Source: Candidatus Multivoradales bacterium
GTDB lineage: Bacteria; Acidobacteriota; Thermoanaerobaculia; Multivoradales; JAHEKO01
DNA length: 64,000 bases
Direction of reading: 5' to 3'
NCBI GenBank assembly: GCA_965248055.1
Contig: CBDFIJ010000004.1
Location: 1,088,001 to 1,152,000 of the forward strand
This document shows positions 11,392 through 20,235 of this stretch, piece by piece. The notes beneath the pieces are model-generated. The model ran no database searches, had not been told where the DNA came from, and saw only the letters and a program-made list of their open reading frames with translations. How positions within the stretch are numbered: the first letter of the stretch is position 1; every line of letters begins with the position of its first letter. A program made the position numbers and the translations under genes.

Positions 11392-12780
11392 ATGTCAGAC
11401 GCACCCACCCATCGCGTGGTCATTGTCGGAGGTGGGGTTGGCGGGTTGAGTGCCGCCCAAGCTCTAGCGGAGGCACCCTTCGACATAGCGTTGGTTGATC
11501 GCCGTAACTTCCACTTGTTCCAACCGCTGCTCTACCAAGTCGCGACCGGCGGCCTCTCTCCAGCGAACATCGCGGCACCGCTGCGACGCATTTTCAGCCG
11601 CCAGAGCAACGTCGACGTGGTTCTCGGGGAGGTAGAAGGGTTCGATCTGGCCGTCCAGCGTGTTCACCTCGCCGACCACGATCTCCGTTTCGACACCCTC
11701 ATTGTCGCCGCAGGGTCGCGGCACGGCTACTTCGGCAACGATCACTGGGAACCGCTGGCGCCCGGACTCAAAACCGTCGAAGACGCGCCCGAGATTCGTC
11801 GACGCTTGCTGATGGCCTTTGAAGCCTCCGAAACTAGCGAGGATAGTGACCAACGGCGCGCTTGGATGACCTTCGTGATCGTCGGCGCCGGCCCTACCGG
11901 CGTGGAACTGGCAGGGGCCTTGGCCGAGTTGGCGCACTACACCCTGCGGAACGAGTTTCGCCATATTGACCCAGCCGAGGCCAACATCATCCTGGTCGAC
12001 GCCGGTGACCGTATCCTCCCCGCCTACAGCGAAGATCTTTCGCATAAAGCCCTGCGATCTCTGCAACGCTTCGGCGTCAGAGTTCATACCGGATCGCCAA
12101 TCGTCGATGTTCAACCCGAGCATGTCCTCATCGCAATAAACGGCGGTCGAGAAACCGTTCCCGCGCGCACCGTATTGTGGGCGGCTGGGGTACGGGCCTC
12201 GCCTCTCGCTCGCTGGCTGGCTGAAGCGACTGGAGCCGACCTGGACCGGGCCGGACGCATCGCGGTCAGCCCCGACCTCACCTTGCCCGGCCAGCCAAAC
12301 GTCTTTGTCATTGGTGACATGGCCGCAGCCCAAGCTGCTGACGGCGGCCTGCTGCCCGGAGTCGCTCCGGTTGCTCAACAGCAAGGACGCTACGTAGCGA
12401 AAATGCTTGCGGAGCGGCTGGACAGGGAGCCCGGATCCGCCAGTCCCGTGGCTCTTTTTCACAACCGCAATCGCGACGCTGCTCCTTTTCGATACCGCAA
12501 TCGCGGCACCATGGCCACCATCGGTCGTTCCGCCGCGGTCGCCATGATTGGGCGGTGGCGTTTTTCTGGGCTACCCGCCTGGCTGATGTGGCTGTTTATT
12601 CACCTGATGCAGCTGGTGCGCTTCGAGAACCGCGTTCTGGTCGCCTGGCAGTGGGCGTGGAGCTATCTCACCTGGAATCGATCAGCCCGCCTGATTACCG
12701 GGCCCAGGGCACTGCTACGCAACCCCGCGGATGCTCGAACTGATGACTCGCAAGCGACCGGAGACGACGCAGACGAATAG
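11392..12780 (+). CDS. ndh: Type II NADH dehydrogenase (FAD-dependent)
   Basis: GGGVGG, FQPLLYQVATG, GAGPTGVELAG, FVIGD. Confidence 0.92.
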   Translation: MSDAPTHRVVIVGGGVGGLSAAQALAEAPFDIALVDRRNFHLFQPLLYQVATGGLSPANIAAPLRRIFSRQSNVDVVLGEVEGFDLAVQRVHLADHDLRFDTLIVAAGSRHGYFGNDHWEPLAPGLKTVEDAPEIRRRLLMAFEASETSEDSDQRRAWMTFVIVGAGPTGVELAGALAELAHYTLRNEFRHIDPAEANIILVDAGDRILPAYSEDLSHKALRSLQRFGVRVHTGSPIVDVQPEHVLIAINGGRETVPARTVLWAAGVRASPLARWLAEATGADLDRAGRIAVSPDLTLPGQPNVFVIGDMAAAQAADGGLLPGVAPVAQQQGRYVAKMLAERLDREPGSASPVALFHNRNRDAAPFRYRNRGTMATIGRSAAVAMIGRWRFSGLPAWLMWLFIHLMQLVRFENRVLVAWQWAWSYLTWNRSARLITGPRALLRNPADARTDDSQATGDDADE

Positions 12781-15681: not shown

Positions 15682-16932
15682 ATGAGACAAAAACAACCCC
15701 GCACCCCGGCGATGATCTTCATCTTCATCACCATCTTCATCGACATCCTCGGGATCGGGATCATTATTCCTGTGTTGCCGGAGTTGGTGAAGGGGTTTGT
15801 CGGCGGGGAAACGGCGGTGGCGAGTCGCTATTACGGCGCGATTGCTGCGGTGTATGCCTTGATGCAGTTTTTCTTTGCCCCGGTATTGGGGTCGCTGTCG
15901 GATCGATTCGGACGACGACCGGTGTTGTTGGGTTCGTTATTCGGTTTGGGATTGGACTATGTGGTGATGGGGTTTTCGACCTCGATCTGGTGGTTGTTCG
16001 CGGGGCGTACTCTGTCGGGGATATTGGGGGCGAGCTACACCACCGCGAATGCCTACATCGCCGATATCTCGTCGGCGGAGAACCGGGCGCGCAACTTCGG
16101 TTTGGTGGGGGTGGCGTTTGGTCTGGGGTTTGTCTTCGGCCCCGCGCTGGGCGGGATTCTGGGTGGAATTGATCTCCGACTACCGTTTTTCGTTTCCGCT
16201 GGACTGGCTCTGGTCAACTGGCTCTACGGCTACTTCGTGGTGCCGGAGTCGCTGGCACCGGAGAATCGCAGCAAGTTCACCTGGAGGATGGCCAACCCGT
16301 TGGGCAGCCTGCGCATCTTGCGTGCCTATCCTTTGGTGGCCGGGCTGGCGGTGGCGTTCGTGCTGATGGTGCTGGCCCAGCGCGGCCTGGAAACCACCTG
16401 GGTGCTTTACACCGGCCATCGCTATGGCTGGGACCAACGCACCAACGGCCTGGCCCTGGGGTTGGTCGGGGTGATGGCAGTGATCGTTCAGGGAGTACTG
16501 GTGAAACCGGTGATCTCTCGTCTCGGCGAACGGCGTACCATCTTGCTAGGCATGCTGGTGGCGGTCGGCGCCTTTCTCGGCTACGGACTGTCCACCGAAG
16601 GCTGGATGATCCCCGTGGTGATCATTCTGGGTTCGCTGGGCGGCCTCGCTGGCCCCGCCTTGCAGGGATTGGTCGCCGGCACCGTCGGCCCCTCCGATCA
16701 AGGCAAAGTGCAAAGCGCCTTGACCTCATTGATGAGCCTGACCGCGATCGCCGCGCCCTTGATCTTTGTCGCTGGGATCTTCAGCTATTTCACTTCGGAA
16801 GCGGCCCCGTTTCAACTGCCGGGAGCACCGTTCTTGCTCGGATCGTTGTTGTCGGTTGCAGCGTTGGTAGTGCTGGTGCGGTTGTTTCGCAGACTTCCAG
16901 AATCATCCGCTCTTTCGTCTGAAAAGCGCTGA
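15682..16932 (+). CDS. MFS transporter, TetA/DHA1 (TCR/Tet) family
   Basis: IDILGIGIIIPVLP, motif A GSLSDRFGRRPVL, motif C GFVFGPALGG. Confidence 0.93.
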   Translation: MRQKQPRTPAMIFIFITIFIDILGIGIIIPVLPELVKGFVGGETAVASRYYGAIAAVYALMQFFFAPVLGSLSDRFGRRPVLLGSLFGLGLDYVVMGFSTSIWWLFAGRTLSGILGASYTTANAYIADISSAENRARNFGLVGVAFGLGFVFGPALGGILGGIDLRLPFFVSAGLALVNWLYGYFVVPESLAPENRSKFTWRMANPLGSLRILRAYPLVAGLAVAFVLMVLAQRGLETTWVLYTGHRYGWDQRTNGLALGLVGVMAVIVQGVLVKPVISRLGERRTILLGMLVAVGAFLGYGLSTEGWMIPVVIILGSLGGLAGPALQGLVAGTVGPSDQGKVQSALTSLMSLTAIAAPLIFVAGIFSYFTSEAAPFQLPGAPFLLGSLLSVAALVVLVRLFRRLPESSALSSEKR

Positions 16933-16999
16933 CCCCGCAGATGGAACCAACTCGCTGACCAGTCAACTCGCATCGGCCTCAGTTCTAGTGCGGAATTTG

Positions 17000-18145
17000 T
17001 CACTCTCCTTCCTGCGATTTGGGCTCCCAAGGTAGAGCGAGCAAATCGCCGTTCTGCATACCGACGAACAACGCTGAACTGGAGCTACCAAGGCCTCGCG
17101 GGAGCCCTCTCATCGGTCGCTCCCAACGAAGGCTGCCATCGCTTAGGGCCACAGCGGCTAACTGATCTCGAACACCAACGATGACTTGGTCACCAACGAC
17201 GAGAGGCTCGAAGGTGCCAAACCCACCGACAATGTTGGTTGTGTGGCGCCACAGCTCATGAGAAAGATCTGGAACAACGCAGCTCAATGCATGGTCGGAC
17301 GCACTCAAGCCTTGAGGTGATGCGACCAGCGCCAGAACACAGTTTTCGGTCGCCACCAATTCCCCATAAATCATCCCACCGATAGAGAGCTCGGACACGA
17401 TCGTGCCGTCGGCGCGATGGACGCGAACCATTCCACCTTCGAGCGTGCCGACCACAAGGTCAACGCCGATCGCTACCGCCGAGCTATTGGGAGGACTGGC
17501 AAGCTCAAGGCGCCATATCAAATCACCTGTTACCACGTCATACGCGTCGAGATGACCCGCATTCCAAGGCACATAGTAGCGGCCATCGGCCAACAGTGGA
17601 TCAAAGGGAAAAGCCCCTGAAGCGAGGGCAAACGCGTTTTCCACCCGCCAGCGCGCATCGCCCGTGTCCAGGTCAAACGCAGCCACCTCGCCATTCATCG
17701 CTGCCACCAAGACTGTATCGCCAAACCGCTTCAGGTCGACGGCAACGCCTAACGGAAAGGTGCGCTTCCATCGAGCGGCGCCATCTTTTCGCTCGAAGGC
17801 ATAGATATGGCCAACAGGACGGGCGTCGGAGCCGACGATAACCAGATCGTCAGTTACTAGAACATCGCCGTGGAACTGGGCTGCGGTTCCGTTGGTCGCA
17901 GTGTCGTACTGCCACAATACTGTGCCCGTTTCCGCTTCAAAGGCATAGAAGACGCCTGAGCACGATCCAACATAGACAGCTTCATCCGCGACCGCGGGTG
18001 CGATGAACACTCACCCCTTGGTGTTGAAAGTCCAAGTCGCTTCGGCAGCCAAGCGATCGGCTCGGGCATCCTCCGCACCCAACTGAGCAACGCCCAAGAG
18101 AAAAACGGCACAGGTAAATCGGAACACTGAGGTTAACTCAGTCAT
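17000..18145 (-). CDS. Secreted PQQ/BamB-type beta-propeller protein with in-frame UGA (candidate selenoprotein)
   Basis: ORFs 18011-18208 and 17000-18010 are contiguous in one frame: ...WTFNTKG-TGA-VFIAPAVADEAVYVGSCSG; signal peptide from ATG 18145; repeated AxDxxTGxxxW blades. Confidence 0.8.
17981..18007 (-). promoter_or_regulatory. Candidate bacterial SECIS hairpin
   Basis: UUCAU-CGCAC-CCGC-GGUC-GCGG-AUGAA; GGUC loop begins 17 nt after the UGA. Confidence 0.6.
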
Positions 18146-18190
18146 GTCGAGAAGATTATCACCATTGCCCATCCTCACGAATGGAAAATA

Positions 18191-18247
18191 CGGGGACAGG
18201 ATACTCATTTCTCCCTAATTGCTAGTCAGATCACTATCCTGTCCCCG
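18191..18247. repeat. REPIN-like dyad (third copy)
   Basis: CGGGGACAGGATA...TATCCTGTCCCCG with compensatory change in both arms. Confidence 0.8.
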
Positions 18248-18313
18248 TGTTTGCAGTCACCTCACGCCCGCGACAAGACCTAACGGGATTGATGTTTGAG
18301 AACGCACGCCTTT

Positions 18314-18730
18314 CTAACTGATCGGGCCGGACTCGTAGTTCCAGAGAATCCATCTTCCTGGAGTCCACAACAAATCCAGATAGTTTTCAGACCCACCAAA
18401 CGTAAACTTGTTGTAGAACAGACTGACACGAGCCGAGACGGGGTTGGATCGCAGGAAAGTAACCTCCAGGCGATCGCAACTCTCCCACCGCAGAGAAGCT
18501 CTCCTTGTTGGTTCGACAAAACCAATCGAGCAGATTCTTGTCGTTGGGTCCAAGATGCCTAGTTCTTCAGCTTCGGTTTGTAACAGTACATCTCCATTGT
18601 TGCTCTCAATCCATTTCTTGTACGCAGTCAAGTTTCCCTTAAATCGACTCCTAGTCGATTCGTCCAGCACAACGACAAACGGTGCCCGAACCACGTTGTC
18701 GTAGCGGTTTCCCTTAGCCATCTCCTGCAC
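18314..18730 (-). CDS. Hypothetical protein (start uncertain)
   Basis: Open frame in an AT-richer stretch; no recognisable motif. Confidence 0.5.
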   Translation of the reverse strand: MQEMAKGNRYDNVVRAPFVVVLDESTRSRFKGNLTAYKKWIESNNGDVLLQTEAEELGILDPTTRICSIGFVEPTRRASLRWESCDRLEVTFLRSNPVSARVSLFYNKFTFGGSENYLDLLWTPGRWILWNYESGPIS

Positions 18731-18867: not shown

Positions 18868-20235
18868 GAGATATAACCGAAAGTTGTGTATGAGAGTTTG
18901 AAGGCGGCGTATCCTGAGCCCGGTTTTTGTCTGGGTTCAATCATCCAAAAAAGGAGGATACGCCGTTGAGCAAGAGTAACGTAATTTCAATCGATCAGTC
19001 AGAGCGTCCTGAGGACGCTCTGAGCGAGGTCCTTCGCCTGGGTTCACGGCTGCTTCTTTGCGAAGCAATCGAGGCCGAGGTGGCGAGTTTTTTGGCCGAG
19101 TACCAAGATCAACGTACAGCGGCGGGTCACCGCCGTTTGGTGAGAAACGGCTACATGCCGGAGCGGGAGATCCAGACCGGTATAGGTGGAGTTTCAGTCA
19201 AGGTGCCACGGGTGCGGGATCGCCAGGGTGAGCTTCAGTTTCGCTCCAATCTAGTGCCACCGTACCTGCGCCGGTCCAAGAGCGTCGAGGATCTCTTGCC
19301 CTGGCTGTACTTGCGGGGGATATCGACCGGAGACTTCAGCGATGCTCTCGAGGCCCTGGTGGGTCCTGATGCACCTGGGCTTTCAGCTTCGACGGTGAGC
19401 CGGCTCAAACGCGTCTGGGGCCAGGAGTACAGCGAATGGCGGCAGCGCGATCTTTCTTCCAAGCGCTACGTCTACGTATGGGCTGACGGCATCTACTGCA
19501 AGGCTCGTCTGGATAACGCCAAGCTCTGCTTGCTGGTGTTAATTGGGGCCACAGCGGATGGCAACAAGGAGCTGATCGCTGTTGAAGACGGTTACCGGGA
19601 GAGTGAGGCGTCATGGCTGGAGCTGCTGCGAGGCTTGGAGAGAAGAGGCCTTACATTCGAGCCTAAGATCGCAATCGGTGATGGCAACCTGGGTTTCTGG
19701 AAGGCTCTGGCTCAGGTGTGGGGCAATACCAAGACCCAGCGCTGCTGGGTCCACAAGACGGCCAACATCTTGAATAAGCTCCCCAAGGTGATCCAACCCA
19801 AGGCCAAGCAGGCGATCCATCAGATCTGGATGGCCGAGACCAGGAAAGATGCCGAGAGGGCTTTTGATGCATTCCAGGCAATCTACCAAGCCAAATATCC
19901 GAAAGCGGTCCAGTGCTTGGTCAAAGATCGCGACCAGCTACTCGCTTTCTACGATTTCCCGGCTGAGCACTGGCTGCACTTGAGGACCACTAACCCAATC
20001 GAATCAACCTTTGCCACCGTGCGCTTGAGAACCGCCAAGACCCGGGGCTGTCTGTCGAGAGAAACCATGCTCTCGATGGTCTTCAAGCTCTGTCAGAGTG
20101 CTGAGAAACGATGGCGAAGGCTACAGGGCTACAAGCGCATTGCCCAAGTCGTTGAAGGGGTCCATTTCGTCGACGGAGAAAAACAAAATCGGATCGCCGC
20201 CTGATGACCCGATACACAACTTTTGACAATAACTC
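18868..20235 (+). mobile_element. IS256-family insertion sequence, intact
   Basis: Imperfect TIRs GAGATATAACCGAAAGTTGTGTAT / ATACACAACTTTTGACAATAACTC; 9-bp target duplication CTCGTTTGG at 18859-18867 and 20236-20244. Confidence 0.95.
18966..20204 (+). CDS. IS256 (Mutator-like) DDE transposase
   Basis: RNGY, VPRVRDR, YVWADG, IGDG, QRCWVHK, RTTNPIES; AAGGAGG before TTG 18966. Confidence 0.96.
   Translation: MSKSNVISIDQSERPEDALSEVLRLGSRLLLCEAIEAEVASFLAEYQDQRTAAGHRRLVRNGYMPEREIQTGIGGVSVKVPRVRDRQGELQFRSNLVPPYLRRSKSVEDLLPWLYLRGISTGDFSDALEALVGPDAPGLSASTVSRLKRVWGQEYSEWRQRDLSSKRYVYVWADGIYCKARLDNAKLCLLVLIGATADGNKELIAVEDGYRESEASWLELLRGLERRGLTFEPKIAIGDGNLGFWKALAQVWGNTKTQRCWVHKTANILNKLPKVIQPKAKQAIHQIWMAETRKDAERAFDAFQAIYQAKYPKAVQCLVKDRDQLLAFYDFPAEHWLHLRTTNPIESTFATVRLRTAKTRGCLSRETMLSMVFKLCQSAEKRWRRLQGYKRIAQVVEGVHFVDGEKQNRIAA

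Follow-up and report, generated by a model that had tools for sequence, protein, structure and literature searches.

We describe a gene that is very likely a genuine selenoprotein gene, located in a 64,000-nucleotide (nt) stretch of a 'Candidatus Multivoradales' genome (contig CBDFIJ010000004.1, positions 1,088,001 to 1,152,000; hereafter, the whole stretch is called the window). In the reading that we favour, a selenocysteine insertion sequence (SECIS) directs selenocysteine (Sec, U) to the in-frame UGA at 18011-18013, and the product is an exported β-propeller in which Sec45 and Cys62 have a redox role. Taken separately, Sec insertion at the UGA appears close to secure from sequence comparison, pairing of U45 with C62 as a redox couple is probable, and for activity as an envelope oxidoreductase the chances are evenly balanced. 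The earlier note on this DNA had proposed Sec insertion from the letters of the window; the support comes from comparative data and not from the window alone, with conservation of the TGA, the existence of Cys homologues, a covarying hairpin and the Sec machinery of the genome all pointing the same way. The recoding mechanism is standard for bacteria, and what is new is the family and its fold: this is very probably a selenoprotein family of soil Acidobacteriota that is large and has so far gone unannotated.

The gene lies on the minus strand, where two open reading frames (ORFs) abut in the same frame with the TGA at 18011-18013 as their sole separator, an arrangement that the earlier note had reported and that the ORF listing and the sequence both confirm. 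The upstream ORF (18011..18208, 65 amino acids (aa)) ends with this TGA, and the downstream ORF (17000..18010, 336 aa) begins with GTG. Read through, they give a product of 381 aa from the ATG at 18145, as had been claimed, or of 403 aa from the ATG at 18208, which is preceded by a GGGAG-like Shine-Dalgarno sequence. Translation likewise reproduces the peptide across the TGA, WTFNTKG-U-VFIAPAVADEAVYVGSCSG (in shorter form, NTKG-U-VFIAPAVADEAVYVGSC), and the gene's own terminator is also a TGA (17000-17002). The features of the gene are as follows.

17000..18208, minus strand: putative selenoprotein gene, encoding a predicted exported PQQ_2-type eight-bladed β-propeller (ORFs, Pfam PQQ_2, AlphaFold2)
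18074..18145, minus strand: probable signal peptide, covering roughly 24 residues at the start of the 381-aa form (a hydrophobic run that ends in AQLGA, ahead of EDA; boundary set by eye)
18011..18013, minus strand: in-frame TGA, very likely read as Sec (U45 in the 381-aa form, U66 in the 403-aa form; orthologue column, Cys homologues)
17981..18007, minus strand: SECIS-like hairpin (lower stem, 5-nt bulge, upper stem, GGUC loop)
17960..17962, minus strand: Cys62 codon (GSCSG), proposed resolving partner of Sec (conservation; model turn 61-64)
17870..17875, minus strand: Phe91-His92 codons, invariant FH motif (FHGD) with a candidate active-site His of inferred role (alignment A7)

At every one of 46 orthologous DNA loci, the alignment column holds a TGA. 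The loci are drawn from six GTDB species genomes (G000, which is the window's genome, and five others), 31 metagenome contigs and nine further genomes of the phylum, with orthologue identities to the window protein of 27-62%. Dropping one exact duplicate leaves 45 loci, several more of which are near-identical; two loci, L141 (TGA) and L149 (Ala), belong to genomes that are unpublished. Among 40 related genomes, matches at E ≤1e-42 were confined to G034 (two places), G012, G010 and G013, and every one had the in-frame TGA, whereas almost all of the weaker, generic PQQ paralogues had none. By translation, the TGA column is identical in all five genomes, preceded by a hydrophobic leader and W-x-x-[DN]-T-x-G and followed by [VI]-[FY]-x-x-P-x-V ... 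S-C-S-G. A scan of 185,579 species genomes yielded one extra carrier, a Thermoanaerobaculia metagenome-assembled genome (L044), and the carriers in species genomes are all Acidobacteriota, from Thermoanaerobaculia and 'Candidatus Multivoradales'. The metagenome scan returned 33 loci, comprising 31 family members, all 31 with TGA, and two unrelated PQQ proteins; it is biased against Cys forms because its search patterns came from downstream of the stop in Sec-type sequences. A Cys-form query against a 401-genome sample of the phylum found 11 genomes at E ≤1e-30, ten of them with TGA and one with Ala.

Gene callers annotate this gene as if the TGA were a real stop (P0002 and 98 other shortened entries), so that the functional protein would be the 336-aa ORF from GTG, accompanied by a separate small upstream ORF. 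A GTG does directly follow the TGA in 22 of the 45 distinct loci, but the next codon is not a start in the remaining 23 (GTC in 16, ATC, CTG and CTC in 2 each, CTT in 1). Moreover, W at -7, G at -1 and a hydrophobic leader are kept upstream of the TGA in 45/45 loci, so the coding constraint spans the stop; a Cys 17 residues downstream of the TGA column is equally constant (45/45). The 336-aa product would lack both the signal peptide and the β-strand 38-41 described below, and the Cys forms of the protein run continuously across the column. Termination at this codon is very improbable as the explanation.

Decoding of the UGA as a standard amino acid, whether by near-cognate reading as Trp, Cys or Arg or under a reassigned code, is just as improbable. 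TGA terminates the window gene and genuinely ends 22 of the 36 family genes that are complete, and must therefore be an ordinary stop in these organisms. The genome has a complete Sec machinery, and the gene shares its SECIS design with selD and fdhA. Where a sense codon replaces the TGA, it encodes Cys or, in two forms, Ala; the Trp or variable residue that the earlier note had named as a refutation does not occur there.

Three loci of the family show separate irregularities. Genome G034 has a second, degraded family copy (L107, G034:C5:222000-226000, at about 1300-2700), in which unrelated sequence of about 90 codons separates an N-terminal piece ending in TGA from the remainder, which has a frameshift and FHAD in place of FHGD. 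Locus L142 (G236) has a second in-frame TGA 111 codons after the Sec codon, at a column that is Trp in its nearest homologue, L144; it is probably a nonsense mutation or an error rather than a second Sec. In L138, on a short metagenome contig, the frame is lost about 85 codons past the Sec codon by comparison with the near-identical L128, likely through an assembly error or because the copy is a pseudogene.

These degraded copies (the second G034 copy, L142 and L138), together with the Mutator-family transposase that adjoins the window gene and the lack of a detected family gene in the same-genus genome G001, are what could be said for a pseudogene, nonsense mutation or sequencing error in the window's genome. 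The same TGA is nevertheless found at 46/46 loci over 27-62% identity, with both flanks open, and positions 16950-18260 are identical (0 differences) in separate assemblies of four runs from one sample, which may be the source sample. The agreement of these assemblies on the TGA stands against an error, and of all the explanations considered here this is the most remote.

Protein searches used a word index covering 5.8 billion proteins and a profile run against 1.84 billion representatives. Among the matches listed, 102 are family proteins of ≤700 aa, with 76 longer multi-propeller proteins set aside on account of their summed-repeat scores. In 99 of the 102 among the matches listed, the N-terminus lies at or after the Sec column, starting at the next residue (46), before the partner Cys (42) or later (11), and none reaches upstream. 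The three full-length family proteins among the matches listed have Cys (P0175 and P0178) or Ala (P0239) at the column; with TGA at every DNA locus, the homologues thus conform to the earlier expectation of TGA or Cys at this position. Both Cys forms keep the partner Cys, P0239 has Val in its place, and the second Ala form, L149, has also lost it. The Sec-column residue and the partner Cys therefore appear to stand or fall together, in four sequences only, which fits a Sec-Cys couple. The suggestion that the Cys of GSCSG is the redox partner is in this way partly upheld: its co-loss with the Sec column in both Ala forms favours it, the sample is small, and the pair itself is putative.

A tree of the 32 rows of alignment A7 and four generic PQQ outgroup proteins (P0037, P0049, P0055 and P0066) places the family in one clade (99/97). 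Its Cys and Ala forms fall inside the Sec forms, but the backbone is not resolved; that Sec is ancestral in the family is a lead, not a result. The family is diverse, with about 100 clusters at 50% identity among the best 150 matches. C-terminal extensions occur in P0111, P0133, P0134, P0138, P0179, P0198 and P0249 and are of the DUF6265, glyoxalase/VOC, ChaN/erythromycin-esterase-like, SnoaL and Redoxin types, the Redoxin domain of P0198 having a CxxC motif.

Just downstream of the UGA, the window mRNA can form the hairpin claimed in the earlier note, with a lower stem UUCAU/AUGAA (18003-18007/17981-17985), an upper stem CCGC/GCGG (17994-17997/17986-17989) and a GGUC loop (17990-17993) that begins 18 nt after the UGA, leaving 17 nt between. 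Across 35 aligned family sequences (two duplicates left out, phylum loci not included), the element consists of a 7-base-pair (bp) stem and a GGUC loop behind a spacer of about 10 nt, and its conservation is accompanied by covariation. Pairing is found in 93.5% of cells, against a shuffled mean of 84.4% (0/500 shuffles reach the observed value) and 43.7-65.7% in slid controls, and the covariation score is 0.236 versus 0.078. The most variable pair, which joins two wobble positions (columns 15/30), is CG in 16 sequences, GC in 7, GU in 4, UA in 2, AU in 1, UG in 1 and unpaired in 4, while the pair between a Pro wobble and an Ala wobble is CG in 31 and UA, GU and UG in 1 each, leaving the peptide unchanged. 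An A-U/G-C switch at columns 19/26 tracks the peptide change PTVVG/PAVAG, and in distant members, whose peptides differ (PTVRG, PAVSG), a hairpin with G-U in its loop persists. The orthologue hairpins have energies of -14.5 to -18.8 kcal/mol. The published bacterial SECIS (bSECIS) model (PMC13188914) has a loop of 3-9 nt, a stem of 4-16 bp, a G in the first two loop positions and a spacing of 16-37 nt; the family hairpin has all four properties, and the window gene has the loop, stem and spacing with a borderline energy.

The genome has the machinery that Sec insertion would need, as the earlier note had asked: tRNA-Sec (75.5 bits), SelA (351.7 bits), SelB (340.9 bits against a cut-off of 242.25) and SelD (347.6 bits against a cut-off of 125). 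Its selD (G000:C4:1264931-1265854) is itself a selenoprotein gene, with an in-frame TGA at the classical position; its hairpin combines a spacer of 11 nt and a stem of 6 bp with a GGUC loop that begins 18 nt after the UGA. The gene for the formate dehydrogenase alpha subunit, fdhA (G000:C4:1910223-1912253, 781.2 bits), has one in-frame TGA, and GGUC starts 19 nt after that UGA within the loop of a 7-bp hairpin. Together, selD and fdhA are the strongest internal control for the hairpin design of the propeller gene. SelA is present in nine of the ten other family carriers and was not found in G010 (86% complete).

Two further observations concern the same genome. A second place scores as tRNA-Sec (G000:C4:1708568-1708653, 50.7 bits against a gathering score of 47) and is probably a long-arm tRNA such as Ser or Leu. 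A genome-wide scan for TGA followed by a stem of ≥5 bp and a GGTC loop, with open frames on both sides, gave seven places, of which only selD is gene-like; the scan is unusable as a selenoproteome finder because the propeller gene fails the 5-bp filter.

Several observations weigh against the selenoprotein interpretation. The window hairpin is the weakest of the family, with an upper stem of 4 bp. The structure as claimed has an energy of -7.3 kcal/mol, which narrowly misses the -7.5 criterion; forcing the loop open gives -8.7 and folding without constraint -11.4, and the minimum free energy of the 42-nt stretch (-11.4) uses another register. Compared with dinucleotide shuffles, the local fold scores z +1.21 over 71 nt, with 183 of 200 shuffles as good, and z -0.34 over 42 nt. 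The window fold being no better than shuffles, the window hairpin alone is not used as evidence, and the significance of the hairpin comes only from the orthologues and from the genome's own selD and fdhA. The outer pairs of the window stem are lost owing to a Gly-to-Asp change, and the lower UUCAU/AUGAA stem partly replaces them. Stem potential is also partly forced by the conserved peptide P-[AT]-V-[AV]-G, and the Ala-form gene of an unpublished genome folds a related stem with a different 6-nt loop, without the GGUC tetraloop. (That gene was tried as a negative control for the hairpin and dropped, since the related stem still forms.) Most selenoprotein families have many Cys homologues; here they are rare, at 2/102 among the matches listed. 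SelA occurs in 309 of the 401 phylum-sample genomes, so its co-occurrence with the family does not discriminate, and as an association test it was rejected as too common in the phylum. The Redoxin fusion was seen in one cluster only, with a score at the Pfam cut-off (26.6 bits). Finally, no conserved gene neighbourhood hinting at a pathway was found across the window and five species loci, and no family gene was found in the same-genus genome G001.

The window protein is predicted to be a PQQ_2-type, eight-bladed, BamB-like propeller, in agreement with the propeller type first claimed for it. It matches Pfam PQQ_2 (PF13360) at 1e-29 (104.3 bits against a gathering cut-off of 27.6) and PF01011 at 34.2 bits. 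It falls short of the curated cut-offs for BamB (TIGR03300, 105.4 against 285.2; NF008351, 76.6 against 423) and for pyrroloquinoline quinone (PQQ)-dependent dehydrogenases of the methanol/ethanol family (TIGR03075, 60.9 against 480.05), and NCBIfam has no dedicated model for its family. An AlphaFold2 model, built from the 32-sequence alignment A7, which includes the Cys and Ala forms, has a mean predicted local distance difference test score of 92.1 and a predicted template modelling (TM) score of 0.87. Its top Foldseek matches in the PDB are eight-bladed BamB structures (4xga_A, E 4.8e-21, TM 0.72-0.75), with tetrathionate hydrolase lower in the list (TM 0.73-0.74). A profile search of PDB sequences agrees (BamB, top among natural sequences, E ~1e-39; tetrathionate hydrolase, 6e-24 over about 110 residues). 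The nearest ESM Atlas clusters, which serve as leads only, are PQQ/PQQ_2 proteins of 327-343 aa, commonest in Acidobacteriota.

The model begins with a low-confidence helix at residues 5-35, corresponding to the leader. The signal peptide that had been claimed is borne out, with its boundary set by eye, by a hydrophobic leader in the window gene and a comparable one upstream of the TGA in every orthologue. By eye, the window leader has no lipobox (L-x-x-C) before the mature part, and some distant family members have a lipobox-like leader. The β-strand 38-41, encoded upstream of the TGA, belongs to the modelled fold and, from propeller topology, would complete the last blade. U45 lies within the loop 42-50, which is followed by strands 51-53 and 56-60, and C62 is in the turn 61-64 after the latter strand. 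Secondary structure and propeller topology would put U45 and C62 where the first strand pair of blade 1 opens, on the propeller face bearing the D-A and B-C loops. In alignment A7, F91 and H92 are invariant and R350 nearly so; the FH(G)D and nearly invariant RG motifs sit in equivalent loops of neighbouring blades, which makes a Sec/His/Arg site at the channel mouth plausible.

We propose that translation would begin upstream of the UGA and that the mRNA 3' of it would fold as a bacterial SECIS with a short G+C-rich stem and a GGUC loop, on which SelB would bring Sec-tRNA(Sec) to the UGA. The pre-protein would then be exported, its leader removed, and the product folded as an eight-bladed PQQ_2/BamB-like propeller. 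In the folded protein, Sec45 would occupy the loop leading to the first inner strand of blade 1 and Cys62 the turn past the next strand, and on one propeller face the two may act as a redox couple (selenenylsulfide/selenol-thiol). Such a protein could be a cell-envelope oxidoreductase that is recycled by a thioredoxin-fold partner.

Even if Sec is inserted, the Sec/Cys pair might instead serve as a ligand for a soft metal or metalloid, or as a carrier of selenium or sulfur, in a periplasmic BamB-like binding or scaffold protein. Among proteins of solved structure, those nearest in fold and sequence are BamB scaffolds, the neighbourhood of the window and five species loci holds no conserved redox partner, and the C-terminal fusions are mostly small-molecule-binding domains (DUF6265, SnoaL, VOC/glyoxalase, ChaN-like). 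One fusion, however, is to a redoxin with a CxxC motif, the invariance of F91/H92 and near-invariance of R350 suggest catalysis, and U and C are lost together. Joint loss of a U...C pair is the usual signature of a redox couple. From the Redoxin and other C-terminal fusions, we favour the evenly balanced oxidoreductase reading over such metal or chalcogen binding, which we consider unlikely. More tentatively, and with the chances somewhat against it, the family could represent the first catalytic β-propeller selenoenzyme, an ancestrally Sec-dependent and Sec-dominant Acidobacteriota family in which Sec45-Cys62, with His92 and Arg350 at the channel mouth, would carry out chalcogen or sulfur-compound chemistry in the envelope, with electrons supplied by a thioredoxin-fold partner, which at least one lineage has fused to the propeller. 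Candidate reactions for such an enzyme are the reduction or cleavage of polysulfides, polythionates, selenium oxyanions or peroxides.

Comparison with known systems separates the shared fold from the new features. Like BamB (YfgL, the β-barrel assembly lipoprotein), the window protein would be a PQQ_2-type propeller with eight blades and about 340 residues that is exported to the envelope; unlike BamB, to which it is 17-18% identical with model scores far below cut-off, it would have a Sec/Cys pair and it lacks a lipobox. It shares the propeller superfamily and blade motif with PQQ-dependent alcohol and methanol dehydrogenases but is much shorter, and the resemblance does not imply that it needs PQQ. 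In methanol dehydrogenase, a vicinal disulfide of redox relevance lies close to the active site, on the face of the propeller. The Acidithiobacillus ferrooxidans tetrathionate hydrolase (6l8a, 7cqy) is a cofactor-less, extracytoplasmic eight-bladed propeller acting on a sulfur compound, and the likeness is in fold only; it has no Sec and is 470 aa long.

Extracytoplasmic thiol-redox selenoproteins (DsbA-like, Prx-like and thiol:disulfide interchange proteins) combine a Sec near a Cys, Cys homologues and export, and are thioredoxin-fold proteins with U-x-x-C or C-x-x-U motifs. In the propeller family, by contrast, the pair would be 17 residues apart on a β-propeller and Sec forms dominate (99 shortened Sec-type entries against two Cys forms, among the matches listed). 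The E. coli fdhF SECIS has an AGGUCU loop. That element and the bSECIS consensus resemble ours in being a coding-region hairpin after the UGA, with G-G/U opening a small apical loop and a spacing of 17 nt. The family stem (CCCCCGC/GCGGGGG or CCCAC/GUGGG) is simpler, and the upper stem in the window has only 4 bp.

The literature covered, in part, comprises a 2026 review with an updated catalogue, deep-Sep, BSepDB, the Haft 2022 preprint and a 2022 review. Literature searches, one of them aimed at Acidobacteriota metagenomes, brought up no propeller, PQQ-like or BamB-like bacterial selenoprotein, nor did the portions searched of these sources, and the passages covered in PMC13188914, PMC12013277, PMC13326102, PMC9312934 and bioRxiv 10.1101/2022.07.06.499078 describe no such family, which the deep-Sep or BSepDB supplements could list. 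If Sec insertion is real, a large family is added to the bacterial selenoproteome, with a β-propeller fold and a cell-envelope location that are unrepresented in the covered parts of these catalogues. Among the matches listed, 99 of 102 database entries lack the signal peptide and first strand; public gene calls are thus consistently in error for this family, and inference of structure or localization from them is misleading. The excess of Sec over Cys forms suits the family to the question of why selenium is retained, and the family points to selenium-dependent envelope chemistry in Acidobacteriota, a soil phylum that is abundant but has seldom been cultured. Because the SECIS is simple and resembles that of E. 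coli, heterologous expression seems feasible.

Around the selenoprotein gene, the window contains the following.

18927-20204, plus strand: Mutator-family (PF00872, IS256-like) transposase, divergent from and just upstream of the selenoprotein gene
18314-18730, minus strand: 138-aa ORF between the selenoprotein gene and the transposase, without a Pfam match
15682-16932, plus strand: major facilitator superfamily (MFS) transporter, convergent with the selenoprotein gene
11392-12780, plus strand: nearby NDH-2-like pyridine nucleotide-disulphide oxidoreductase

Neither the MFS transporter nor the NDH-2-like gene recurs at the other loci examined. At the five other species loci, the flanking ORFs encode an amidohydrolase, DUF819 or S9 peptidase, or have no match; one ORF was chosen by length on each side, and some may be spurious in this G+C-rich DNA. 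The adjoining transposase and the lack of a detected counterpart in G001 indicate an accessory gene, and the selenoprotein locus may be accessory or mobile.

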